A stretch of DNA of 64,000 nucleotides. Origin: Blastocatellia bacterium. Lineage in GTDB: Bacteria > Acidobacteriota > Blastocatellia > RBC074. This document shows positions 1 through 34,565 of this stretch, in pieces (within the stretch, counting starts at the first letter, position 1; the number at the start of each line of letters is the position of its first letter). The DNA lies in the NCBI GenBank assembly GCA_035714085.1, contig DASTMP010000173.1:6170-70169 (forward strand), read 5' to 3'. A model generated the notes under the pieces. That model was not told the origin of the DNA and made no database searches. It saw only the letters and a list, made by a program, of their open reading frames with translations. A program made the translations under genes and the position numbers.

Positions 1-1078
1 AGAAGCTCTCGGCGAAGCTGTAAGAGATCGAGCGCCCCGCCGGCGAGGGCGAGATGATCCAGTTGGCCCAGATACTTTGGGTGGGCGCTCCGATCTCGGC
101 GCCTATCGGCTGTCCCCAGAAAACTCTCTTGCCGCCGCTCTCAGCTCCGCGGTAAATGACGTTGAGCGTACGAATCTGCGCCGCGGTGAAGCAGTCTTTT
201 CCGTCAACGTCATTGGCGCAAACCGGCGACTCTTTGGCCGGATCGAAATCGCATCGTCGGGGATCGTCAATCAATCCGTCAACCAGGCCGTCGGCGCCGT
301 CGCATTTCGCATAGACGCGCTCGGCGATGAGCTTCAACTTCTCTAGCGGAACCGGTGCGGCTTCGAGCGCGCGAATCGACGGAACGTAATTGGTCATCGT
401 GCCCGTTAAATCGAGCACCGGCGCGCCGACGACTATGCCGTCGAAATCGTCAGGGAAGCGCTGGGCCGAGATCAAACCCTGCCTGCCTCCGGTGGAACAC
501 CCGTCGAAATAAGACCGCGCGGGGGCATTGCCGTAATACTCGCGGATGATCCGCTTCGAGGTATCGGCCGTGACGTGGACGGCTCGGAAGGCGTAATCGA
601 GCAGTTTCTGCCGATTGACGGCGAATGTCCCGAGCGGTTCGTTGAGGGCGTCATGGCCGGTGTTGGTCTGGGCGACGGCGAAGCGGGCCTTGAGCGCCGT
701 GTTTCGAGTATTGACGCGTTGCGGCGCTGTGAGCGTCTCGCCCGCATACCCGCCGTTCCCGAACATATAAAACCGGTTATTCCAGGACGATGGCAGACTC
801 AGCTCAAAGCGCACCTCCGGCAGAATCTGTCCCGTGACGTGGCAATATTCCGGCAGGTCGCCGGAAGCCGGAACCAGCGCCGCCGTCTCGATCGAGAACT
901 CATACCCGCTCAGGCTCACGAGCGCGCCGCATCCGACTTCGGCCCGTTTCGGTTTAACGACGGCTCCGTCATTGAGCGACGGCTTCCAATCTCTGAACTG
1001 AACGCCATTCTGCGCCAGCGCAGACGAGGTTGACGATAGAAGGAGCGAAACCAGGAGAATGATGGATCGTCTGTTCAT
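1..1078 (-). CDS. Tannase/feruloyl-esterase family alpha/beta hydrolase, secreted; N-terminal part only (3' end lies beyond the window start)
   Basis: It is absent from the ORF track because there is no stop in the window. My own minus-strand translation from ATG 1078-1076 gives [23 protein letters not shown] (signal peptide) ...[16 protein letters not shown]...[13 protein letters not shown].... GCSxGGRQ is the nucleophile motif I remember for Pfam PF07519. The frame was checked (1078-511 is divisible by 3). There is an ATGA start/stop overlap with the upstream cytochrome c gene. Confidence 0.7.
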
Positions 1079-1614
1079 TTTTCACTACTCGCTTTCGATG
1101 GCTTCGGTCCGATGCTGCGAATGTAGTTGACGACTTGCCAGATCTGCTTCTCTGTGAGCTTCTCTTTGTAAGCCAGCATGTCAGCCGACACGCCGTCGCG
1201 GATGACGACGAAGATTTCGCCATCGGTCGAGCCGTGGTCCCAGGCGTCGTCGGTCAGATCGGAGGGCTCGCCGCCTGAAAGCGCCATGCCGCCGTCGCCT
1301 TTGCCGTTCGGACCGTGGCACGCGGCGCAATGGCGTTGATAGAGTTTCTTCCCGGCTTCGACGGATTCGGCGTTCTGCGGCTCGGGATTCTTGAGTTTCT
1401 GCGCTTCGAGATTACGGCGTGGCTCCTGAGCCTGCGCGCCTGGGTTACGGTACGGGGAGCGTGAGCGACCTGAACCTCCCGAACCGCACTCCTTGCCGAG
1501 GCTCAGGTCGCTCACGCTCCCCGTACCGTACCAGGCCATCATGACTACCGCAAAAATGCATAAGACCCTCGCCGACAAACGGCGCGCGGCGCCTCTGCTA
1601 TTCCTGAGGGACAT
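1075..1614 (-). CDS. Secreted mono-haem class I c-type cytochrome
   Basis: It has one CxxCH motif ([13 protein letters not shown]) and a downstream Met ligand region ([10 protein letters not shown]). The N-terminal signal-like segment is [17 protein letters not shown]. The start is ATG at 1614-1612. Confidence 0.8.
1447..1529. repeat. REP-like palindromic element, family A (27-bp perfect arms, 29-nt loop), located inside the cytochrome c CDS
   Basis: Arm acggtacggggagcgtgagcgacctga at 1447-1473 is the exact reverse complement of 1503-1529. A near-identical element lies at 34566-34659. Confidence 0.85.
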
Positions 1615-2089
1615 CGAAATTCTCCATCAGATATTCGGGCCGCCGCTCGCGCAGGTGCAGAAACAGTTCGTGCGCCAGATTGATGATGCGGTTGACCCCG
1701 TAGGCGTATTGATTGTTTTTGACCTTGATGGATACGGAAACGAAGCCTCCACGGTTCGCGCAGGAAACCTCGGCCCGTTTGCGATCAATCCGCCGGTGCT
1801 CTGGCAATTCTCTGTCGTGCCGCCGCTCGATGAAGCTCTTCAATTCGGCGTAGAGCGCCGATTTCGCCGGAACGTTCGGCAGAAGCCGTTTGAATCGCAG
1901 CTCGTTTTTCGCCGCATCCACGCTCAGTTCCATCCGATGATTGATTACCCAAACGAACTGGAAGTGACCGTTCTTGATTTCGCTAAAGCCGCGAAAGACG
2001 CCGCGGTCGGCATACGTCTGCAGGCTCTCTCTGACAACATTCAAAGGCTTATTTATCTGTCTTTGGGCAATTGTCATCGCTGTCTTCAT
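1598..2089 (-). CDS. Hypothetical protein (family not recognised)
   Basis: The ORF-track ORF 1598-2128 starts at TTG. The first ATG (MKTAMTIAQ) is at 2089 and avoids overlap with the upstream gene. It has protein-like composition and overlaps the cytochrome c start by 17 nt, suggesting an operon. Confidence 0.4.
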
Positions 2090-2105
2090 TATGCCGAGTA
2101 GTTCA

Positions 2106-2834
2106 TCACTGGCGACTTTTGGAACCAACCTGATATGGCGGTTTTTGCAATTGAACCAATACGACGTCCGCTGGCTCTACGCCACGCTTGTCATGATCGC
2201 GGATAAACCGAAAGCGACAGGAGTCTCCGCCCGTCGAGATCGTTGATGGGCGCTCCGTGCGAATCGGACGAGGCGACCGGTCAATAACTTCCATCCAAAT
2301 GCGGTCGAACATGCACAAGACAGGCGTCAGAGTGGGTTCGCCGTGGTCCACAAAAAACTGATGGTAAGCGCAGCGGCGCACCACCAATACCACCGCGTCG
2401 TCCGTTTTCTCCTCGGCGAACTCCATGCCAGTTCCCTGGTTGCGCTGGAAAAACCGGGCCAGGGACCAGCGACTCAAAAACCCGACCGGATCATGCGCGA
2501 GCCAGAGCCAGAGCTTGATCAGCAAGCGCCAGGGACGTTCCAAAGTTTGTTGAAAGACCGTGCGCGCGAAGGCATACGCGCCGACGTCGTCGCCTGTCTC
2601 TGCGCGGAATTCCCGGAATGCGGCGAGCATTAGCGAACAATACGCATAAATCGCTCTGGCTTGCGAATCGGGGAGCGCCGCCACGCTCGCGTCAAAAACC
2701 TGCTGCGTATGATCTCGGATGCGCGCGACTAACAATTCGGCTTCGGGCGCCTTCCCCCGCAGTTCACGGCGACAATTACGCAGGAAGAAATAGCCCAATA
2801 TGTTAATGACCGGGTTTCCGAATCGGAGACGCAT
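2106..2834 (-). CDS. L-2-amino-thiazoline-4-carboxylic acid (ATC) hydrolase-like family protein
   Basis: The C-terminal pattern [12 protein letters not shown]....C.FD........[13 protein letters not shown] resembles my memory of PF14196. The assignment is by motif only. Confidence 0.5.
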
Positions 2835-2946
2835 CCTGATCAGTGATTATAGGACATTCGCCCAGGTTCGACCGGCATAGGCCTGCAAGTTCACTCTGAC
2901 CGCGCTCAGCGGCTTAACTGTCGTTTGTGTTTGTGAGATTGTCATC

Positions 2947-3528
2947 TCAAGATTCCCAGGCGCAACGGGGCCATTTCAATTTTAAGGGCGTCCATTTCCC
3001 GTCTTTCTTTTGGAGGACATGAAATCTACCTCCGCCGGAGAGACTCCAACTGTGACGCCCCATATAAACAACCGCCACCGTCTTGTCGGCGTTGAACCCG
3101 ATTGCCGACAGTTCGATCCAACCGCCTGAATTCGGATACTGTTTATAGAAATTCTCCCATCCCCCCTGTTTAAGCGCTGACCTCAATTCATCGTAGGGAA
3201 TAAGTTCATACGGCTTTTCGATGCTGAGCCGCCGTTGGAGCAGCCAGGCCATTTTGTTTAATTTGACATACTCGGAAATCGCCTGCCCGATTATTTTCTC
3301 TGATTCAGCCTCAGGTTGAAGGCACATTTTATAACCAATGGTTTCACTCCGAATGACCAAAGATTTTGCGTTCCCCAATAGCGACGGCCATACTGTTGGA
3401 AGGATGACGGAATATACCTCATAGGCCTCGGCGTCCTCGTACGAGTTTGGTTGGGCGTCCTTATTTGTCGCGCCATTTTGAAAGAGCGATAGAGACGAGA
3501 TCAGCAGCGATACAATTTGTAATAGCAT
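2947..3528 (-). CDS. Hypothetical secreted protein
   Basis: The ORF-track start 3585 is TTG. ATG 3528 (MLLQIVSLLISSLSLFQ, signal-like) is preceded by GGAGAG. Its GC content is lower than that of its neighbours. Confidence 0.45.
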   Translation of the reverse strand: MLLQIVSLLISSLSLFQNGATNKDAQPNSYEDAEAYEVYSVILPTVWPSLLGNAKSLVIRSETIGYKMCLQPEAESEKIIGQAISEYVKLNKMAWLLQRRLSIEKPYELIPYDELRSALKQGGWENFYKQYPNSGGWIELSAIGFNADKTVAVVYMGRHSWSLSGGGRFHVLQKKDGKWTPLKLKWPRCAWES

Positions 3529-3577
3529 TTGTCTCTCCACTATTGAGTCCGGTCTCGACCGTGCTGTGCGAAGCGAG

Positions 3578-4414
3578 TCATCCAATCACCTGAACATATC
3601 GGTCGAGAACAGGCAGGACTTTATCCCGCCCCGCAGGCGGCACATAGAAAATCGCCCGCTCCACGCCGGCGCGCTCCAGATCATCCAGCGCTTTGCGCTC
3701 CGCATTGGCCGCGAAAATAGTAATGGAGATGGAACTCGGGTCACGATCCGCTTCTTCGGCTCTCCTCCTTAACTCGGCGATCTTCTCTTCGGCGTTGACT
3801 AACCGGAGGCCGATGGGCATCCACCCGTCACAGAATTCTATGACGCGTTCGAATGTGGTCGGCCCATTTCCTCCCATCAGGATCGGAGGATGAGGCTTCT
3901 GCACGGGCTTGGGGAACGACCAGATCGGGTCGAAGTTGACGAACTCGCCATGAAATTCAGCTTCGTCCTTGGTCCAGATCTCTTTAATGGCGAGCGCTCT
4001 CTCCCTGAGCACGCGCCAACGCCGCTTGTAATCGGTTCCGTGATTCTCCATCTCTTCGGCGTTCCATCCGCCGCCGATGCCGAAGATGACTCTCCCGTTC
4101 GAAAGCTTGTCTAGAGTCGCAACCTCTTTGGCGGTGACGATCGGGTCACGCTCGATCACAAGGCAGATGCCCGTGCCCAGACGGAGTTGTGTTGTAGCCG
4201 ATGCGGCGGCAGTTAGAGCGATAAAAGGATCGTAAGTGTGCCAATACTCACGAGGCAGGTCCCCGCCGCCGGGCCACGGGGTTCTGCGGCTCGCGGGAAT
4301 GTGGGTGTGTTCCGGAAACCAGATTGACTCAAATCCACGTTGCTCGACCTCGCGCGCCAACTCATCCGGACTGATCGCGTATTCTGTCGGAAACATCGCT
4401 ATTCCGATATGCAT
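3578..4414 (-). CDS. LLM-class (luciferase-like) F420/flavin-dependent oxidoreductase
   Basis: The sequence MHIGIAMFPTEY...WFPEHTHIP...GIGGGWNAEEMENHG...PPILMGG is typical of luciferase-like monooxygenase family members. ATG 4414 has a GAGGGGGAG RBS, and the longer ORF-track start is unlikely. Confidence 0.75.
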   Translation of the reverse strand: MHIGIAMFPTEYAISPDELAREVEQRGFESIWFPEHTHIPASRRTPWPGGGDLPREYWHTYDPFIALTAAASATTQLRLGTGICLVIERDPIVTAKEVATLDKLSNGRVIFGIGGGWNAEEMENHGTDYKRRWRVLRERALAIKEIWTKDEAEFHGEFVNFDPIWSFPKPVQKPHPPILMGGNGPTTFERVIEFCDGWMPIGLRLVNAEEKIAELRRRAEEADRDPSSISITIFAANAERKALDDLERAGVERAIFYVPPAGRDKVLPVLDRYVQVIG

Positions 4415-4431
4415 AAGCTCCCCCTCGGAAA

Positions 4432-6381
4432 TCAGTGGTTGTAAGACATGCACCCGGGTTCGACAGTGCCGAGGAAGCCCGGCGGGAATTGCTGACTGGC
4501 CCAGAATTCCTTCTTCGCCTGGCAATTGATTAGTGAAGGCCGGCTCTCCTTGACGGCGATCTGGTAACAGCGTTCGAGCGCCGCGCGGAAGTCTCCCGGC
4601 TGGGTCACGTACTCGCCGTGCGCGCCGAGGCCTTCGGCGACCTTGTCATAACGCACATTCTCCTGAAACAGGTGGAGGCTCAACGTTACGGGGCTGCGGC
4701 TGTTGCCCGACCACGTGCCCCAGGCGTTGTTGTTGTATACGATCACGACTATAGGCATGCGGTATTTCGAAGCGGTCTCGAGCTCCATGATCGTGTAGCC
4801 GATGCCGGCGTCGCCCGTGACGCAGATCACCGGAGCGCCTTTGTACGCGGCCTGCACGCTGACGCCGTTCTGCACCGCAGCCGCGGCGCCGAACGCGTAA
4901 CCGACATCCGGCCCAATCGCTCCGTATTGATACGCCCCATTCAGAATCTGGCCCGGACGGTAACCGCGCAACCAGCGGCGCACATATCTCGCAATGCCGT
5001 ATCCGCCCGAGACGAATGTTGTCTGCTCTTTGGGCAGTTTGCCGCGATACATAAAATCGCTCAGTTCTTTGGCGATCACCGCCGGGTGGACGGCATCGGC
5101 GTAGCTCAAGCCTTTCGCGTAGTAAGCTTCGTTTTCGTCTTCGAATTTCTTCCGCGCCGCCGCGATCTCGGCCACCCACGCATCGTGTTTCATCGGGGGC
5201 AGGGCGTCGGCGAGGGCTTCGAGCGCCGCCTTTTCGCAACTGACCATGCCGACGTCTATTGGCACGTTGCGGCCTATGTCTTCGGGACACGGATCGATGC
5301 GAATGTATTTGGCGTCCGGCCCGAAGGCGAACTCGCCGACCTTCGGCATGCAATACTGGCCTGCCAGCACAACGACGTCGGCGCTGGCGAGCGCGTCCGG
5401 CGCGGCGTTGGCCGAAAGCGGGCTCGCGTCAGAGAACTGCCCCTTCACCGCGCCTGATTCGACGACCGGAATCTGCGCCTTCTCGGCCAGGCGCTTCAGC
5501 GCGTCCCAGGCGCGGCTGTAAAAGACCCCGTTGCTCGAGACGATGATCGGACGCTGAGCCTGTTTGAGCAGTTCGACCGCGGCCGCGACGTCCTTCGGCC
5601 CGGGGTGCGGCTTGGCGGTCGTGCGGTATTTGCCCTTGTCGTGGTAGTACTCCAGATCGCCCGGCTTCTCGAAGCGCGCGCGCGTGACTTCCGCCGGAAA
5701 ATCGAGATGCGCCGGACGCGGGACTCCCGAGCGCAGCTGCCGGAACGCATAAGCGCCATACTCATGAATGCGCTTCGGAGTGATCAACCGCTTGCCATAC
5801 TTCTTCAATCCTTCGGTGGTCGGCTGCTGATAGCCGAGTTGAATGCCATACTCCGTGTCTTCATTGGCGATCGTCATGTTGCTGGCGAGCACGAGCACCG
5901 GCGAGCGCGCCGCATTGGCCGCGGCGATGGCGTTGATCATGTCGGTGAAGCCCGGCCCTTCCGTCCCTGATGCGGCCGCGACCTCGCCCGTCACACGACA
6001 GAAGCCGTCGGCGGCATGGCACATCGCGCCTTCGTGGCGACCGGAGTAGGTCAGGATGCCTTCGAGCGCAATGGCGTTGACGACAGCGTAATTGCCGGGG
6101 CAGGAGAAGAGCGCGGCAAGCCCTTCTTCCTTGCAGAGTCGCGCGAAGACCTGCGCGCCGGTCATGGGAAAGCTGGCCGGAGACAGCGTGGCTTTGGCCG
6201 CCTGGGCGAATTCGTCAGGAATTTTGATCGTCCTGTTTTCAGGCGTGTCGGCGGCGTTCGCCTTGTTGTCCCCAAATGCGATAACCGTCCCCGCCCCGGC
6301 CATCGCTTTGGTTATGAACTTTCTTCTGGAGACGTCCGGCCCGTTTTTTTTGGCTCTGTTTTTGTTATCGGTGTTATCCAT
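4432..6381 (-). CDS. Thiamine-diphosphate-dependent enzyme (acetolactate synthase/benzoylformate decarboxylase superfamily) with a twin-arginine signal peptide
   Basis: The ThDP-binding motif is [33 protein letters not shown]. The N-terminus [22 protein letters not shown]...ANA matches the Tat consensus S/T-R-R-x-F-L-K followed by an h-region and AxA. The RBS is GGAGAGG. Confidence 0.8.
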
Positions 6382-20302: not shown

Positions 20303-20413
20303 CTGTAGCTGGTGAAAGTCGTTTGGGTGCCTCCCAAATCCCATTAGCCATCAATGCGTTCTACCACACAAGTGCCTTAAAGTCTTTAATGCCATAAACT
20401 CTATGGAGTTCTG

Positions 20414-22074
20414 ATGATAATCCCAAATGATAGAGTGAAGATTAACAATAAAAATAAAGCGGCAGACGACAAGTTCACGTTCCGTAGACATGATACTGTT
20501 GGCGCAGAAGCCGCCGAAGAGGACAGCCTATTTTTAGAGGCCTGCTTTACTGATATTGGTGACCTCAGCGCTCTTATTGATTGCGAAAGCCCAAAGAGAA
20601 TAATTCTTGGGAGGACTGGTGTAGGGAAGACTGCTCTTATTGACCAACTTGCTAAGGAGAGAGAGGTAATCAGGATTAGTCCTGAGAGTCTTTCATTCAA
20701 CTATCTTACTAATTCATCAACTCTACAGTTTTTTCTGGAGGCAGGAGTAAAACTCGATTTGTTTTTTAAGCTGTTATGGCGACATGTTTTACCGTCGAAT
20801 TGATAAAACGTAAGTACAAAATCAATGATGAGGTTGCAAAGAGATCTTTCCTCTCAAAGATCGAAGACATAATCACAAGAGATAAGAAAAAAGAACGGGC
20901 AGTAAATTACCTTAGGCAGTGGGGTGATAAGTTCTGGGAGCCAACAGAATACAGAATCAAGGAAATAACGAATAAAATAGAAACAGAACTTAAAGGCAGT
21001 GTACAAGCAAAGCTCGCTCCAGTCGAACTCGGTAGTTCCGGTGTTGCCAGGTTAAGCGAAGAGATAAAGAAAGACGTTGTTCAGCGAGGTCAGGCTGTTA
21101 TTAACGAGATTCAAATGAGAGAACTGACCGATGTCCTTGAATTTCTCAATGAAGATATATTCCATGACAGCAAGCAGCGTTTTTATATATGTATTGATAA
21201 ATTGGACGAAAATTGGATCGACGACAAATTCAGATACCTTCTAATCAGAAGCTTAATAGAAACAATCCGCGACTTTTTAAAAGTAAGGAATATCAAAATT
21301 ATAGCTGTGCTACGAACAGACTTAATTGAGCGGGTAATTCGTTATACACGCGACAGCGGTTTTCAAGAAGAAAAATATCGGTCTTTACAGCTTATATTGA
21401 AGTGGAGTCGGAACCAACTTAAAGAATTGCTGGATGCACGAGTTAACTATTTAGTTAAACAAAGGTATACCAACAAGCCAGTTGGGCTTAGTGATGTCCT
21501 CCCACGTAGCATTGATGGAGTTGAGGCAATACAGTATATGGTTGACAGGACTCTGATGAGGCCACGTGAACTGATAGAGTTCTTCAACGAGTGTATTGAG
21601 CACGCTGAGGGTTCGGCAGTGATCACAAAACAAGCGCTCCTTGATGCTGAGGAGCAATATTCAAAAAAGCGCCTTCGCAGTTTACAGGACGAGTGGGTTT
21701 CTGATTATCCATCATTGATCGACCTTGCCTTCATATTACGAAAGCAGCCAAAACAATTTAAGATAGGGGATCTCAAGATCGAGGAAATGGAAAATTTCTT
21801 GCTCAATTATGCCATAGATTATAGTGATAGATCTGATGCCCTTTCTCAACAGGCTAAAAATGTAGCGGAGGGAATTACATCTATAAAACACTTTCTGCCC
21901 ACGCTATTTCACATATTTTATAAGACTGGCCTTGTAGGATTAAAAACGGAATCTTATGAATCCATGCAATGGTCTTATAATGGACCTGAGGTGATAGTTA
22001 ACAACAGTATAAATGACGATACTAGCGTAAAAATACATCCTACCTTTTACAGAGTCCTAGGCATCAGACCATAA
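20414..22074 (+). pseudogene. P-loop NTPase (about 560 aa if repaired), disrupted by a 1-nt frameshift in a T4 run at 20787-20790
   Basis: ORF 20414-20803 carries the Walker A motif (GRTGVGKTAL). ORF 20776-22074, in the -1 frame, carries the Walker B-like motif (FYICIDKLDENW). The frames overlap only at 20770-20803. Adding one T restores ...LWRHVFTVELIK.... The region is strongly AT-rich relative to its flanks. Confidence 0.6.
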
Positions 22075-22114
22075 CAGTCAGGACCATAAAAAAGCAGTTC
22101 TTTGGGAATTGCCA

Positions 22115-22447
22115 TTACGCCATCCGCCGATTTTCAATCGCATATTCCACAACAATCGGATAGAAGCGCGACGCCTGCAATTTGTGTTGCGCCAGCATGC
22201 GCGGTACTTCTTCGCTCAGGATGAAGCCGGAAGTCAACGAATTGTGCGAGACGAGCACCACAGCGACGCTGCCGCGTTCGATGGCGTTGATGATTTCGGC
22301 GAACCAGTCATCGCCCCCAATAAGTTTGCGATCATTCCAGGTCTGCAGCAGCCCTTGCTTTTCTGCGATGCCGAGATGCTTGACCAACCGATCCTTCCAC
22401 GGTTCGTCAAGGTGGCTATAGCTGATGAAAACTGTCGGTACGCTCAT
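22115..22447 (-). CDS. TIR-domain protein, short (110 aa, probably C-terminally truncated)
   Basis: VFISYSHLDEPWKDRLVKHL...WNDRKLIGGDDWFAEIINAIERGSVAVVLVSHNSLTSGFILSEEV matches the TIR_2 (PF13676) pattern as I remember it, including the conserved Glu region. The ORF ends where full domains continue. Confidence 0.7.
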   Translation of the reverse strand: MSVPTVFISYSHLDEPWKDRLVKHLGIAEKQGLLQTWNDRKLIGGDDWFAEIINAIERGSVAVVLVSHNSLTSGFILSEEVPRMLAQHKLQASRFYPIVVEYAIENRRMA

Positions 22448-22516
22448 TGCTCATTCCTGAACTGGCTTGATTGCTGATCGGATCAGGGAATGACGGATGC
22501 CGCCAACCGGCCTGGC

Positions 22517-22939
22517 TTATTGTGAATCAAGGGATACGACCTCGAAGGAATCCTTCCCATTAATTTTGTAGACGTAGAAATCAGAGTCAAGTGTGAAGAT
22601 CCTCTTCAACCCAGTCACTTCGGCGAGAACTACAAGGGAAGCGTCGGCCAAATCCATTGGGGTATCCTGATACTGCTCCATCAATTCACGGACACGTCTC
22701 CACTCATCTTCTTCATGGGAGTGAAGAACTAATGCGCCTTTTTCCAGATACCGCCATAGGGCTAGCTGTCCCTTCCATCCGCGAAGTTCGCCGAGTAAGT
22801 ACATCGCCTCGGTAAAGCATGCCCATGAGGTGAGCATTGGGCCGCTAAGAAAATAGGTAGCGGAATGACATTTTCTGTGAGTTTCTTTGTCGGTCTTGTC
22901 AATGAGGGCGACAAGCGGGCCGGTGTCAACAAGTGTCAT
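22517..22939 (-). CDS. PIN-domain ribonuclease toxin (VapC-like)
   Basis: The protein starts MTLVDTGPLVALID. Acidic PIN residues are at D5, FTEAMY, DLADAS and LDSDF. ATG 22939 lies 7 nt after the upstream antitoxin stop. Confidence 0.75.
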   Translation of the reverse strand: MTLVDTGPLVALIDKTDKETHRKCHSATYFLSGPMLTSWACFTEAMYLLGELRGWKGQLALWRYLEKGALVLHSHEEDEWRRVRELMEQYQDTPMDLADASLVVLAEVTGLKRIFTLDSDFYVYKINGKDSFEVVSLDSQ

Positions 22940-22946
22940 GGGAGTA

Positions 22947-23246
22947 TCACGGGAGTTTAAGCCCCTGCTTTCTGAATTTCTCAATCAGCAACTGCCCAAA
23001 TAGCGTATGGCGGGGCTGAGCGGACGGATCAGGGTCAGGCGCGCTGCTGTCAATGACTCCTACAAGACCTTCTAAAAGCTCTGCGAGTGGACGTTCCTCT
23101 TGCGCTTTCCACTCTCCGTTTAATGGATGAAGCGGAACGAGCGCGGCGATTCTGGCAAGGTAATCGTCAATTGAGAGGTGCAACGCGTCAGCGATAGCCT
23201 GCAGCCTCATCGCCGTTTCCTCTCTGACTTCAATCTGTACTGTCAT
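22947..23246 (-). CDS. Putative antitoxin partner of the PIN toxin
   Basis: It is a small acidic protein (MTVQIEVREETAMRLQAIADALHLSIDDYLARI...) immediately upstream of the PIN gene. ATG 23246 has a GAGGGGG RBS. Confidence 0.5.
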   Translation of the reverse strand: MTVQIEVREETAMRLQAIADALHLSIDDYLARIAALVPLHPLNGEWKAQEERPLAELLEGLVGVIDSSAPDPDPSAQPRHTLFGQLLIEKFRKQGLKLP

Positions 23247-30337: not shown

Positions 30338-30889
30338 ATGAGAAAAGTAGTCGTTACGATGTTCTTGACATTGGATGGCGTCATGGAAGATCCGCAGAAT
30401 TGGTCTTTCCCATACTGGAATGACGAAATTGCGAAGTTTAAAAAGGACGAGCTGTTCGCTACTGACGCGCACCTGCTGGGACGAGTGACCTATGAAGTTT
30501 TTGCAGCCGCCTGGCCATCCAGGGCAGATGAAGCGGGGTTTGCCGACAGAATGAACGGCCTTCCAAAGTACGTTGTGTCAACGACCCTGGAAAAGGCTGA
30601 GTGGAACAACTCAACGATCATCAAAGAGAATATTGCGGAAGAAGTCTCGAAGCTGAAACAACAGCCCGGCCAGGACATTTTGGTCGCCGGCAGCGCCACC
30701 CTTGCGCAAACACTGATGCGACATGACCTTACTGATGAATATCGGCTCTTAGTCTACCCCATTGTTCTGGGAAGTGGAAAGCGCCTCTTTAAAGGCGGGA
30801 GCAAAGCTGGCTTGAAACTTGTAGAAACTAAGGCATTCAGTTCAGGGGTCGTATTGCTTCGCTACCGGCCCGACGGAAAAGAACCGTAA
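30338..30889 (+). CDS. Dihydrofolate reductase-family protein (RibD C-terminal domain type)
   Basis: MRKVVVTMFLTLDGVMEDP...GRVTYEVF...ILVAGSATLAQTLMRHDLTDEYRLLVYPIVLGSGKRLF is typical of this family. Confidence 0.7.
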   Translation: MRKVVVTMFLTLDGVMEDPQNWSFPYWNDEIAKFKKDELFATDAHLLGRVTYEVFAAAWPSRADEAGFADRMNGLPKYVVSTTLEKAEWNNSTIIKENIAEEVSKLKQQPGQDILVAGSATLAQTLMRHDLTDEYRLLVYPIVLGSGKRLFKGGSKAGLKLVETKAFSSGVVLLRYRPDGKEP

Positions 30890-30893
30890 ATCC

Positions 30894-31121
30894 TCAGCGC
30901 GGGTTTTTGATCCTCTTTCCAGTCAGGCGCAGGCGCTTCTTTTGAAGACTTTGGGCGGTGAGAATGAGGCCGGCGCGGTCAATCCTTTCGAGGGCTTCGA
31001 TCTCCCGCTCGCCAAGCCCGGCCTTTGCGGCTTCGCCGCGCGGATCGGCCAGGAACCGCTCGCGCAAGTTTTCGTCAACATAGATCTTGGCGAGGAACGC
31101 TTCCAAACGCGCGGCGCTCAT
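30894..31121 (-). CDS. 75-aa Cys-free helical protein translationally coupled to the MNIO gene (Nif11-/LigA-like helical pattern; role unknown)
   Basis: ATG 31121-31119 overlaps the MNIO stop TGA 31120-31118 (ATGA). The protein is MSAARLEAFLAKIYVDENLRERFLADPRGEAAKAGLGEREIEALERIDRAGLILTAQSLQKKRLRLTGKRIKNPR. The longer ORF-track start is unlikely. Confidence 0.5.
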   Translation of the reverse strand: MSAARLEAFLAKIYVDENLRERFLADPRGEAAKAGLGEREIEALERIDRAGLILTAQSLQKKRLRLTGKRIKNPR

Positions 31122-32008
31122 GCGGCCTCCTTTTCCATTCGCTCGAATTGGCGCGACCTTCCCTCGGCCAGGGCTTCGCGGGCGCAATCCAATTGCCGAA
31201 GCAGAGTGTCAATCGGCGGATAAGCTCCATCGCGTTCCAGGATCACCGTCAACGGATTGGGAGCTAATGCGGCGAGTTCGGTCAGAAGCTGATATACCAC
31301 GTCGGGCACATCGTGCAGATGATCGTCCAGCAGGCGTCGCTTGCCGAGCGCTTCCACCCACTTTCCTCCGGCCAGATGCGCGGCGGCTATTCTCTCCGAG
31401 GGAAGCCGCTTTAAAAACTCCGCAGCGTCGTAACCGAAGTTCGTCGCGTTCGCGTGAAGGTTGTGCAGGTCGAGCAGCAGGTCGCCTGGCGATGAGTCAA
31501 TGATCCTGTTGATCCAGTCAATCTCGTCGTAATCGCTGCCAGGCGGATCAATCAGCGTGGCGATGTTTTCGACTAGAGGCGCCGCGCCTACCACCGCGCG
31601 CGCGCGTTCCAAGTTCGCCGCCGCGCCCTCGATCGTGGCGTCTGTTCGCGGAGGCGCGGCCAGATGACCTATCTCAACACCCCCGCCGCGCACAAAGGCC
31701 AGATGCTCCGACCAGTACTCAGGCTCTACCTCTTCACACAGCCTCGCTGTTTTTTCCAGGAGCTTCGCATCAACCGGGACTGATGAAGCCAGGCCCAGAC
31801 TGACGCCGTGCAATACTACCGTTGTTTGAGCCGCCAACGTGCGCAGCGCGCGCCGTTCGTCTCGCGGCGCGTCGAATAGATCGTCGGCAATCACCTCCAC
31901 AACATCAATTCGATCAAGATTCGAGAGGATGCCCACGGCCAATTCGCCGCGCCAGCCCAAGCCGACACGGTCCCGAATCGTTTTTTTCCCGGCGCTCTTA
32001 AATTTCAT
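31118..32008 (-). CDS. DUF692 / MNIO (multinuclear non-haem iron oxidase; MbnB/TglH/BufB-like) family enzyme
   Basis: The conserved blocks I remember for DUF692 are all present: VGLGWR, VLHGVSLGL, WSEHLAF, LVENIA, LLLDLHNLHANATNFGYD, AAHLAGG, LLDDHLHDVPD and ILERDG. ATG 32008-32006 overlaps the upstream stop (ATGA). Confidence 0.8.
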   Translation of the reverse strand: MKFKSAGKKTIRDRVGLGWRGELAVGILSNLDRIDVVEVIADDLFDAPRDERRALRTLAAQTTVVLHGVSLGLASSVPVDAKLLEKTARLCEEVEPEYWSEHLAFVRGGGVEIGHLAAPPRTDATIEGAAANLERARAVVGAAPLVENIATLIDPPGSDYDEIDWINRIIDSSPGDLLLDLHNLHANATNFGYDAAEFLKRLPSERIAAAHLAGGKWVEALGKRRLLDDHLHDVPDVVYQLLTELAALAPNPLTVILERDGAYPPIDTLLRQLDCAREALAEGRSRQFERMEKEAA

Positions 32009-32922
32009 GATGATCCGCAGCCCCCACAGCCCCCGCCGCCACAACCGCTTCCCCCATCCGAAGAACCGCCACAGCTACTCCCTCCGTCCGAAGAGCTGCA
32101 AGATGAAGATGAATCGGACGAACCGCATGACGATCCGCAAGAAGAACTACTTGTCGCTTGAGGGAAGAGAGTTCGCGCATATCCGAATGGAGTCGTCGCA
32201 AGAGCCGTGACTCCGAAGACCGCGGCGAACATCGCCAATTCCGCGGATGCGCTGCCCGGACTGAATGAATTGACTTGTGTTCTCAACCCTGAGTAGAGAT
32301 TCGCGATGTCCGCCAACGTCGCCTTGCCGCGAGCGGTCAGACGCGGGAAAGAGGAGAAGGCGGCGATGGCCATTGCGGCGATCATCATCACAACGAGGAA
32401 GCCCACAGGTCTCTCTCTCGAAAGGCCAATCACGATTTTGATCACGCCGACAACCCCCAAAGCCATCAATGCCAGCAGCAACCGCATCAGCCGGTCGCGA
32501 CGGACGGCGGCGTCGGGCATCAGCCCCGCGCGTTCCAATTTGTCGCGGTAAGGTCGGAGCAGCGACTTCAAGTTGTCATCTTTGAAGATGGATGGCGCCT
32601 CGCCCGGATCGCCGAACTTTTTCAACACCTCATACTCAATCGGGTGTTTAACCATATCGTTGGTCACGTGATCGGCGCGGCGGATGATCTGGTCATCCAT
32701 GGCCAACAGCCCACGGTCAACAAGCGAGATCACCGCCACACGCAAAGCTTCGTCCTCGCCGCCGCGCAAATAGGCGACCAGATATGGATCACCCAGGTCT
32801 ATCTTTGGCGCAGGGCCGGATTCCGCGCGGCGTCGCAGAATGGCGATCGCTAAGAAGACGACCAGGCTGAAGCAGAAATATAAGAGGAGAAATTCAGGGC
32901 CGCCTAGATCGAAAGGATTCAT
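32005..32922 (-). CDS. TIGR04222-type membrane protein with a C-terminal Cys/Ser/Gly-rich tail
   Basis: The N-terminus NPFDLGGPEFLLLYFCFSLVVFLAIAILRRR plus DPYLVAYLRGGEDEALRVAVISLVDRGLL is the TIGR04222 signature as I remember it. There are 3-4 hydrophobic segments. The last 49 aa are TSSSSCGSSCGSSDSSSSCSSSDGGSSCGGSSDGGSGCGGGGCGGCGSS. ATG 32922 has a GGAGGTG RBS. Confidence 0.7.
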   Translation of the reverse strand: MNPFDLGGPEFLLLYFCFSLVVFLAIAILRRRAESGPAPKIDLGDPYLVAYLRGGEDEALRVAVISLVDRGLLAMDDQIIRRADHVTNDMVKHPIEYEVLKKFGDPGEAPSIFKDDNLKSLLRPYRDKLERAGLMPDAAVRRDRLMRLLLALMALGVVGVIKIVIGLSRERPVGFLVVMMIAAMAIAAFSSFPRLTARGKATLADIANLYSGLRTQVNSFSPGSASAELAMFAAVFGVTALATTPFGYARTLFPQATSSSSCGSSCGSSDSSSSCSSSDGGSSCGGSSDGGSGCGGGGCGGCGSS

Positions 32923-33236
32923 GGACACCTCCTGTTTAGCATTCTACGTTCGCGCAATTCCCGGCGTACGTTAAATCCAGGTTAGGTGTTCAAGTATGGA
33001 CCAATCATGCTTCAACGAGAAAGCGTTTCACATTATTCCGAGCTCGGCTTTGATAAATTCCTTTCAGCGGGATTGTGCGGCTCGGCTTCATGCAATTGGA
33101 GAAAGCGCCCCAACCCATGGCTATTTGATAGCCTTTGATTGCCAGGGATGAGCGTTCTCGGTTACATTCGCCCTGCTTCAAATCGCAACATTCCAGAACT
33201 ATTGTCATCGGCAGATTGGAATAAAAGGACGGTGTG

Positions 33237-34565
33237 ATGATGCGTCTCAAAGCCTTATTGATCAGCTTTTGTTTGTTCCTTGCCTGTGTCGGCTTCGCAG
33301 CCTTCGGAATTGACGAACCTTCGGCGGGTCAAGCCTCGACTTCCGCCGGAGTGAAGGCGTTTGTCGGCGCGCGCCTCATTGACGGCGCCGGTAGGCCCGC
33401 CGTCGAAAACGCGGCGCTGATAGTGCGCGATGGCAGAGTGGAAGCGGTCGGACCGGCCTCAGAAGTAAAGCCTCCCGCCGGCGCCCAAACGATCAACCTG
33501 ACAGGCAAATTCATCATTCCCGGCCTGATCTCGACGCACGTCCACATCTCCGACGTTCAGGGCTTGCGGCCTCCCGCTTACACTGACGAAAACACAATGC
33601 GCCAGCTCGGCGTCTTCGCGCGTTATGGCGTCACGACTGTCCAGAGCCTGGGCGGAGAGAAGGAACCGGCCTTCAAGGCGCGCGAGGCGCAGAACACGCC
33701 ACAGCTTGATCGGGCGCGAATTTACCTGGCGGGAGACGTCATCACCGGCAAGGAGCCGCAGGAAGCCCGGCAAATGGCGGCCCGTGTCGCCGCCGCGAAA
33801 CCCGACATCATCAAGATTCGCGTCGACGACAACCTCGGCGCGACGGCCAAGATGCCGCCCGAAGTCTATCGCGCGATCATCGATGAAGCTCATCAACGGG
33901 GGTTTCGCGTCGCGGCCCACATTTTCTATCTCGAAGACGCAAAAGACCTGCTGCGCGCCGGCGCCGACTTCATCGCCCACAGCGTGCGCGACAAGGAGAT
34001 TGACGATGAGTTCATCTCGTTGATGAAAAAGCGCGACATTCCATACTGTCCCACGCTGACGCGCGAACTCTCGGCCTTCGTCTATGAATCTACGCCCTCG
34101 TTCTTCTCCGATCCTCTCTTCCTGCGCGAAGCCGACCGCGAAGTGGTGGCCCAGTTGCAGGAGCCGCAGCGCCAGGAGGCGATGCGAAAATCGGCGACCG
34201 CTCAGCGCTATAAGGCGGCGCTCACTGTCGCCCTGCGAAATCTCAAGAAAGCGGTCGACTCCGGACTTATGGTAGTGATGGGCACTGACGCCGGCGCTTT
34301 CGCCAACCGCTTCCAGGGCTATTTCGAGCATCTCGAAATGGAGATGATGGCCGAAGCCGGACTCACGCCCACGCAAATTCTGCGTTCCGCCACCGGCGCC
34401 GCCGCCCGCGCGATGCGGGTTGAGGGGATCGGCGCGATAACGAAAGGCGCGTGGGCCGATTTCGTAGTGCTGGAGCGAGACCCTTTGAAAGATATCCGCA
34501 ACACCCGCGGCATCGCTTCAGTCTGGATCGCAGGAAACCAGGTCAGGGGAATCGAGCCACGGTGA
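33237..34565 (+). CDS. Secreted amidohydrolase-family metallohydrolase
   Basis: It has a signal peptide, the metal motif PGLISTHVHI (HxH), a later HS.. His and a GTDAG Asp region. The ORF-track start 33234 is GTG and ATG follows at 33237. Confidence 0.75.
   Translation: MMRLKALLISFCLFLACVGFAAFGIDEPSAGQASTSAGVKAFVGARLIDGAGRPAVENAALIVRDGRVEAVGPASEVKPPAGAQTINLTGKFIIPGLISTHVHISDVQGLRPPAYTDENTMRQLGVFARYGVTTVQSLGGEKEPAFKAREAQNTPQLDRARIYLAGDVITGKEPQEARQMAARVAAAKPDIIKIRVDDNLGATAKMPPEVYRAIIDEAHQRGFRVAAHIFYLEDAKDLLRAGADFIAHSVRDKEIDDEFISLMKKRDIPYCPTLTRELSAFVYESTPSFFSDPLFLREADREVVAQLQEPQRQEAMRKSATAQRYKAALTVALRNLKKAVDSGLMVVMGTDAGAFANRFQGYFEHLEMEMMAEAGLTPTQILRSATGAAARAMRVEGIGAITKGAWADFVVLERDPLKDIRNTRGIASVWIAGNQVRGIEPR

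Follow-up and report, generated by a model that had tools for sequence, protein, structure and literature searches.

Known MNIO systems and the TIGR04222 class

To our knowledge, the substrates of all characterized enzymes of the MNIO family (DUF692) are dedicated small precursors, either peptides or proteins, and almost all of these enzymes need a partner of the DUF2063/RRE type. Here we analyze a 64-kb stretch of DNA from a Blastocatellia bacterium (contig DASTMP010000173.1, from now on the window), in which an MNIO gene lies between those of a TIGR04222-family membrane protein, ending in a cysteine-rich tail, and of a 75-aa protein. The nearest models for this enzyme are the bufferin (BufA/BufB/BufC) and oxazolin (HvfA/HvfB/HvfC) systems, where Cys residues are the targets and the product is a Cu-binding 5-thiooxazole. 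However, their substrates are small, Sec-exported proteins with a signal peptide and a DUF2063-RRE partner of ~250 aa (the activity of HvfB requires partner proteins), whereas the candidate substrate here is the tail of a polytopic membrane protein and there is no DUF2063. Every Cys of this tail precedes Gly or Ser, as does the modified Cys of MbnA, and the target Cys residues of HvfA stand before Gly in repeated KCG motifs. In methanobactin biosynthesis (MbnA/MbnB/MbnC), MbnB oxidizes a Cys located before a small residue to a Cu-binding heterocycle plus a thioamide and has the same set of iron ligands, but it is only distantly similar to our enzyme (24 bits), and its substrate, the short leader-core peptide MbnA, is cleaved and secreted, with MbnC as the partner. 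TglH/TglI, which act on TglA-Cys in the pathway of 3-thiaglutamate, work at the extreme C terminus of a carrier, and the iron ligands align one to one with those found here. Nevertheless, TglH, which needs TglI, removes the beta-carbon from one Cys appended at the C terminus, whereas the tail of the window has several internal Cys-Gly pairs before the last one or two Ser/Gly residues. The MerC-bufferin fusions (PMC12452194) are an earlier case of a polytopic membrane protein to which an MNIO substrate domain is joined covalently, although these contain a folded bufferin domain and canonical BufB/BufC, and our candidate is a low-complexity tail.

The association between TIGR04222 proteins and MNIOs, together with the proposal that the tail is the substrate, comes from a genome survey (Antoine et al. 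2025, Microb Genom, PMC12452194). There, TIGR04222 co-occurs with 11% of the MNIO loci and represents 40% of the candidate precursors without a signal peptide; the MNIOs of these loci cluster near the bufferin and oxazolin enzymes, and the loci contain no DUF2063 genes, the partner being of “PME-type 2” or missing. The clusters described have in common with ours the upstream TIGR04222 protein devoid of a signal peptide, the Ser/Gly/Cys tail and the absence of DUF2063. They are mostly from Actinomycetota, with a PME-type 2 partner or none, whereas here the third gene codes for a 75-aa protein that probably belongs to the NHLP clan. The triad is a clean acidobacterial member of this published, so far only predicted, class. 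The novelty given to the pairing in an earlier note on this DNA, made from its letters alone, was too high, since both the link and the tail-substrate idea appear in the survey, although without biochemistry. Since the idea was already in the literature, the locus is of value as a well-defined test case and not as a discovery, and its terminal CGGCG motif and NHLP-clan protein are concrete minimal constructs. What we add is this small protein, a CGGCGS end found on an unrelated carrier and a soluble domain that charge analysis places in the cytoplasm. With ~11% of the MNIO loci containing TIGR04222 (PMC12452194), a large uncharacterized group is at stake. If the tail were modified, an ordinary polytopic membrane protein would come within reach of MNIO chemistry, and the triad would provide a compact three-gene system for MNIO substrate recognition without a leader or an RRE partner.

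The three-gene operon

The features of the operon, with positions in the window and the evidence in brackets, are the following.

32005..32922, minus strand: gene of the TIGR04222-family membrane protein, 305 aa (TIGR04222 profile, AlphaFold2 model, hydropathy and charge counts)
32008..32154, minus strand: Ser/Gly/Cys/Asp tail of this protein, 49 aa, residues 257-305, 7 Cys, candidate MNIO substrate (composition)
32014..32043, minus strand: terminal motif C294-G-G-G-G-C299-G-G-C302-G303 (alignment of 21 homologues)
31118..32008, minus strand: gene of the MNIO enzyme (DUF692, PF05114), 296 aa (profile and complete iron-ligand set)
30894..31121, minus strand: gene of the NHLP-clan (Os1348/LigA-like) four-helix protein, 75 aa, with a basic C-terminal extension, candidate non-PME partner of the MNIO (profiles, fold and gene order)
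32005..32008, minus strand: ATGA stop/start overlap of the membrane-protein and MNIO genes (window sequence)
31118..31121, minus strand: ATGA stop/start overlap of the MNIO and small-protein genes (AGGAGG at 31131-31126)
32923..33131, minus strand: upstream non-coding region of the operon (includes an AGGAGG Shine-Dalgarno at 32933-32928)

The membrane-protein gene starts at the ATG at 32922, which gives the N terminus MNPFD..., as in its homologues. The start codon of the MNIO gene is the ATG of the same ATGA that holds the stop of the membrane-protein gene, and the small-protein gene likewise starts inside the MNIO stop, preceded by AGGAGG. The operon is self-contained and translationally coupled, and it belongs to a Blastocatellia-type acidobacterium. 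Scans of the 30- to 34-kb region for promoters, terminators and Rfam families gave nothing relevant on the minus strand, where neither a sigma-70-like site nor an Rfam match was detected.

The membrane protein scored 118.3 bits against the NCBIfam model TIGR04222 (cutoff, 43; E value, 3.8e-34). The match runs from residue 15 to 242, i.e., positions 2 to 229 of the 229 of the profile, and the tail starts beyond it. We found 422 homologues, many of them labeled TIGR04222 at source. The protein begins with a transmembrane (TM) helix (residues 9-32), followed by a soluble domain (~35-135), a TM hairpin (138-168 and 174-191), a marginal fourth hydrophobic segment (229-250) and the disordered tail. 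A Foldseek search of the model against the PDB returned only noise (best E value, 3.5), and we could link its winged-helix-like element (residues 46-82) neither to an RRE nor to another known domain. The body of the protein has a weak match to DUF2207_C, and the DUF2207 family also has Gly-rich tails; both points count in favor of a tail that is intrinsic to the protein and unmodified, a possibility weighed below.

The MNIO matched PF05114 (MbnB_TglH_ChrH) with 214 bits (cutoff, 25; E value, 2.9e-63) along residues 15 to 279 (profile positions 2 to 261 of 263), and the blocks HGVSL, SEHL, VEN, DLHN, DDH and ERD are all present. The iron ligands of TglH (H71, H107, E151, D184, N187, H216, D229, H231 and E258; PMC10880893) have as counterparts, in the same order, H67, H102, E147, D180, N183, H211, D228, H230 and E258. 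Seven of the nine were mapped through the TglH alignment, while H67 and H102, which lie outside it, were placed by an alignment to 3BWW and by motif conservation. Among the curated models, the scores were highest for BufB (NF050167; 173.1 bits, cutoff 310) and HvfB (NF003818; 150.3 bits, cutoff 360), followed by ApyH (92 bits), ChrH (56 bits) and MbnB (TIGR04159; 24 bits, cutoff 325). Judged by sequence, the enzyme falls in a distinct subfamily nearest to BufB and HvfB. It has no export signal. The gene-level reading of the earlier note was therefore sound: the three minus-strand genes chained by ATGA overlaps were all found at their positions, the TIGR04222 assignment has a profile score above the cutoff, the 49-aa S/G/C/D tail is there with its seven Cys, and the DUF692 identity with every conserved block of the iron site is backed by the PF05114 match and by nine intact ligand positions.

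Conservation of the triad

To recover related loci we scanned one genome per species and read the gene content of each locus by open reading frame (ORF) calling and phmmer. The 42 loci obtained are mostly from Blastocatellia/Pyrinomonadaceae, with a few bins labeled as Terriglobia, Verrucomicrobiota or otherwise. In 41 of them, the small gene directly follows an intact MNIO gene (in the other, L039, the MNIO gene is interrupted), and the junction is a 4-nt overlap in 38 of the 42. All 35 loci that extend far enough on that side have the TIGR04222 gene immediately upstream of the MNIO gene; here, the junction is a 4-nt overlap in 21 cases and a longer overlap or another kind of junction in the others. 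Two truncated contigs still show only the end of the TIGR04222 tail. Recurrence in 42 species-representative genomes puts the arrangement far beyond what chance would give. Adjacency and ATGA coupling had been named beforehand as the features whose lack of conservation in relatives would speak against the proposal, and both are conserved in these relatives.

Directly upstream of the TIGR04222 gene, 21 of the 35 loci carry a gene (L002:3483-4247, L004:129-872, L043:2022-2837 and 18 other loci) coding for a Pol-beta-type nucleotidyltransferase (NTase)-like protein of ~250 aa, with an LYGSGAEG...SDLN motif and weak matches to PF18765/PF01909, and therefore most of the family has a four-gene operon. 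This gene is missing from the window and from its closest relatives. When the neighbor families were clustered, no other recurrent one appeared in the 42 loci. In L039 (positions 120-5004, in a bin labeled Acidimicrobiia), the MNIO gene is split by ~4 kb with glycosyltransferase-like genes on the opposite strand, and its 3' end still overlaps the small gene by ATGA; this could be an insertion or an assembly chimera.

Proteins in which the MNIO and the small protein appear fused were also considered and discarded. In L007 and L048, both genes are in one ORF by 1-nt frameshifts that are probably assembly errors; P0266 sits in a decayed locus, and in P0356 the tail region is read out of frame. 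A decayed form of the operon (L059:480-1404) contains NTase-like and TIGR04222 fragments and then the C-terminal half of the MNIO in frame with the small-protein domain, which indicates that some database “fusion” proteins of this family are gene-decay artifacts.

The cysteine tail and its end on another carrier

The last 49 residues of the membrane protein are made up of 22 Ser, 16 Gly, 7 Cys, 3 Asp and 1 Thr. The tails of the homologues (n = 96) are similar in composition (Gly, 35%; Ser, 30%; Cys, 12%), with 1 to 10 Cys and a length that goes from 19 to >60 residues. The tail-coding DNA (32036-32147) contains tandem repeats of 30 nt (2.0 copies) and 12 nt (2.6 copies), which fits a variation in length by repeat expansion and contraction. 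Residues C294, G297, G298, C299, G300, G301, C302 and G303 are invariant in the 21 aligned homologues, and the end ...CGGCG plus one or two Ser/Gly is found in all but three of the related loci. No cleavage motif between body and tail is conserved in the 21-sequence alignment, and no leader motif was evident.

The best single piece of evidence, although it is one case, comes from a distant MNIO-small pair (L049) that lacks an upstream TIGR04222 gene. Directly after this pair there is a gene (L049:5361-7115) for an unrelated protein of 584 aa, with Ala-rich helical repeats and a C-terminal end ...GGDGGSCGGCGS (...GGSCGGCGS). It suggests that the terminal motif, and not the TIGR04222 body, travels with the enzyme. 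Neither a TM segment nor a signal peptide was seen in the sequence of this protein, which had no homologue in an index of 5.8 billion proteins. A carrier that is apparently soluble and has no signal peptide fits a modification taking place in the cytoplasm.

The question of the compartment also arises for the membrane protein. Its N terminus has no Lys or Arg, and neither does the tail, which has three Asp, whereas the TM flanks that face the soluble domain have a strong positive charge (RRR at TM1, four Arg at TM2 and PRLTARGK at TM3). By the positive-inside rule, the 114-aa soluble domain would be cytoplasmic. This differs from the survey, where both the soluble domains and the tails of TIGR04222 proteins are predicted to be periplasmic (PMC12452194). 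The segment at 229-250 reaches a maximum Kyte-Doolittle value of 1.62, and AlphaFold2 gives two short helices there. A cytoplasmic tail would be directly accessible to an MNIO without an export signal, and a periplasmic one would have to be modified before a late translocation.

The small protein

The AlphaFold2 model of the 75-aa protein has four helices (mean pLDDT, 75.7). Its profile matches are all below the cutoffs but agree with each other: NF038399, the Os1348 family of the NHLP clan (30.4 bits, cutoff 40; E value, 3e-7), LigA (PF07746; 21 bits, cutoff 25.3; E value, 3.6e-4), Frankia_peptide and Nif11. Of 60 members of the family, 51 matched NF038399 at an E value of ≤1e-3 (best, 2.4e-11), and 26 matched LigA. 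The top 32 Foldseek hits were chains of Os1348 and SonA, with probabilities up to 0.98, TM-scores of ~0.5 to 0.6 and E values of at least 0.09. By profile and fold, the protein resembles the NHLP clan (Os1348 [6LK7], SonA, proteusin leaders and LigA); it is probably an NHLP-clan (Os1348/LigA-like) domain and is not a partner of the DUF2063 (PME-type 1) kind. The earlier note had described a helical protein; helical it is, but the probable clan assignment goes further than that and raises the possibility that it is a precursor. NHLP domains in known RiPP (peptide made by the ribosome and modified after translation) systems are substrate leaders and not enzyme partners, whereas the 75-aa gene always follows the MNIO. 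On the other hand, LigA shares this fold group and serves as the small subunit of the non-heme iron dioxygenase LigAB, which we counted for a partner role.

Close homologues of the small protein number 147, from metagenomes and Blastocatellia metagenome-assembled genomes, and a profile search retrieved 812 clusters (E value, ≤1e-3) among 1.84 billion cluster representatives. The conserved part is the helical domain (residues 1-63), with D48 and K62 invariant. Past K62-R63 there is an extension of 3 to 64 aa with 30% Arg plus Lys, 3% Asp plus Glu and no conserved position, often amphipathic (e.g., RRWVFFARKWF or FRALFRALRI) and with Cys in only 21 of 227 proteins. This variable, Arg/Lys-rich extension resembles a membrane-surface anchor and not a core peptide, favoring a role as partner over one as substrate. 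Neither a core peptide nor a Gly-Gly cleavage motif could be recognized in the small protein.

No likeness to DUF2063, TglI or MbnC was detected by Pfam or by Foldseek against the PDB (3DEE, 8HI7 and MbnC did not appear), and hhalign against two DUF2063 proteins from plasmid bufferin operons gave nothing. A tblastn search of the window and of the 42 related loci found no DUF2063 gene either, in keeping with the earlier view that no full-size partner (~250 aa) is present. It had also been noted that a separate Cys-containing precursor is missing. The candidate that we examined, an 81-aa ORF (33005-33250), was rejected, as its conservation is limited to the part that runs antisense to the 5' region of an amidohydrolase gene, and no conserved ORF of that kind was found. 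The survey used the term “adjamnio-V” for very small proteins encoded after MNIOs and lacking a structural homologue (PMC12452194), and our 75-aa family may or may not correspond to it.

A comparison by hhalign with one Streptomyces PME2-like protein gave a 25-column motif, DRAxLxxxxxxLxxKR (E value, 0.032), that spans the invariant D48 and K62; it should be taken as a lead, not a result. The PME2-like protein had no other homologue in the plasmid collection. It is encoded in plasmid p1 of Streptomyces sp. BHT-5-2 (L056:3483-5745), where an MNIO gene is followed by those of the 155-aa PME2-like protein and of a 268-aa TIGR04222-like protein.

Proposed function

From the conserved adjacency and coupling, the fixed end of the tail and its presence on the L049 carrier, we infer that the tail would be the substrate of the MNIO and the small protein its partner, a pairing to which we give somewhat better than even chances. 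A cytoplasmic MNIO would work with the 75-aa NHLP-clan protein, in place of the ~250-aa DUF2063/RRE partner, to oxidize cysteines of the co-encoded TIGR04222 protein within its disordered C-terminal tail. At least the three conserved terminal Cys of C-G-G-G-G-C-G-G-C-G would be the likeliest targets, and the likeliest product a heterocycle of the 5-thiooxazole type, as made by BufB/HvfB. The outcome would be a membrane-tethered chain of ligands for soft metals, most likely copper, and the small protein, through its Arg-rich and often amphipathic extension, may keep the enzyme at the membrane's inner face. The earlier note had gone as far as a modified, copper-handling tail. The comparative link supports its substrate part, while the chemistry (thiooxazole or oxazolone-thioamide) and the copper come from analogy with the known systems; these two, as well as the side of the membrane, are suggested with less confidence, the former because no conserved metal-related neighbor was noticed.

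A more far-reaching version can also be envisaged. An NHLP-type, leader-like protein may have been recruited as a dedicated MNIO partner, the pair reading a portable C-terminal tag, (C-Gn)n-C-G-G-C-G-S, on unrelated carriers and, at the cytoplasmic side of the membrane, equipping full-length proteins with ligands of the thiooxazole type. We put this forward tentatively and would not be surprised to see it fail. If true, it would be a protein posttranslational modification for a membrane-tethered metal or redox site and not a secreted RiPP.

Several observations weigh against the tail as substrate and the chemistry proposed for it. Full-text literature searches found no biochemical study of the modification of a TIGR04222 tail. 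The MNIO falls below all the equivalog cutoffs, and hence its chemistry may differ, and no conserved copper-related family was noticed beside the triad, where the neighbor families were clustered without annotation. The tail would be outside only if the marginal segment at 229-250 spans the membrane, so that on hydropathy and the model its side is ambiguous. The L049 carrier is one orphan case. The folds nearest to the 75-aa protein (Os1348 [6LK7], the borosin precursor SonA and proteusin leaders) are leaders of RiPP precursors, although DesB/LigA is also among them, and the apparent natural MNIO-small fusions, which had looked like Rosetta-stone evidence, are unreliable. Finally, the Streptomyces locus pairs an MNIO and a PME2-like gene with a TIGR04222 gene that has no Cys tail, which indicates that the body has a role other than substrate carrier.

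Alternative explanations

The tail could be the substrate and yet not the final form of the product, with the membrane protein acting as a giant leader or scaffold from which the Cys-rich peptide is cleaved off to give a diffusible RiPP metallophore like methanobactin. A Ser/Gly/Asp spacer that varies, before a short end that is conserved, does resemble a linker plus a core peptide, and the N-terminal moiety has been suggested to take part in biogenesis (PMC12452194). Besides, a gene for a MacB-type ATP-binding cassette (ABC) exporter adjoins the triad both in the window and in L001. However, this synteny is confined to the close relatives examined (L001, L007, L008 and L010), and we rejected a functional link to the transporter. 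Among the neighbor families clustered from the 42 loci only the NTase-like gene recurs, so that nothing points to a conserved protease or exporter, and the boundary between body and tail has no conserved cleavage motif. A released peptide seems unlikely.

The 75-aa protein might instead be the true RiPP precursor, a leader-like domain plus a variable core, with the TIGR04222 protein as an accessory for export, immunity or scaffolding. The match of 51 of 60 members to the Os1348 NHLP-clan model and best folds that are precursor leader domains point in this direction, as do a conserved N-terminal part joined to a hypervariable C-terminal one (the classic pattern of a precursor), the capacity of MNIOs to act on residues other than Cys, and the Streptomyces TIGR04222 protein that adjoins an MNIO without having a Cys tail. 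Nevertheless, the extension has no conserved residue, shrinks to 3 aa and looks like a membrane- or polyanion-binding tail; the gene comes after the enzyme and not before it, and no conserved protease or exporter family was seen. Moreover, neither the conserved CGGCG end nor its recurrence on an unrelated carrier would be explained, and we find this reading improbable.

It is very unlikely that the tail is an unmodified, intrinsic part of a TIGR04222/DUF2207-type protein (binding Zn or Fe-S through its thiols, or sensing redox state), with the MNIO-small pair acting on an unlinked substrate or in some other way on the membrane protein: in its favor, one third of the genomes with TIGR04222 genes have no MNIO gene, and a C-proximal Cys is missing from more than a quarter of the TIGR04222 proteins (PMC12452194), but the end of the tail is invariant in the 21-sequence alignment, strictly coupled to an MNIO in 35 loci, and found again on a different carrier beside a distant MNIO-small pair.

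Other features of the window

In the window, a RibD-C/DHFR-like gene (30338-30889) separates the small gene from the ABC ATPase gene. L007, which is otherwise colinear, does not have it and shows a gap of ~12 nt, indicating a lineage-specific insertion or deletion. On the other side of the operon, a non-coding stretch upstream of the amidohydrolase gene (33132-33233) is 88 to 89% identical to L007 and L010; the coding sequence of the triad is only 78 to 83% identical to close relatives. This stretch includes the only sigma-70-like match of the region (33139-33168, plus strand).

Further away, positions 20400-22500 form a low-GC island (GC content of 0.415, against ~0.58 elsewhere) that looks like an acquired defense island. 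One of its genes, P-loop ATPase-like, is divided between two ORFs (20414-20803 and 20776-22074), beside which there are a TIR-like ORF (22115-22447, minus strand) and a PIN-like toxin ORF (22517-22984, minus strand).

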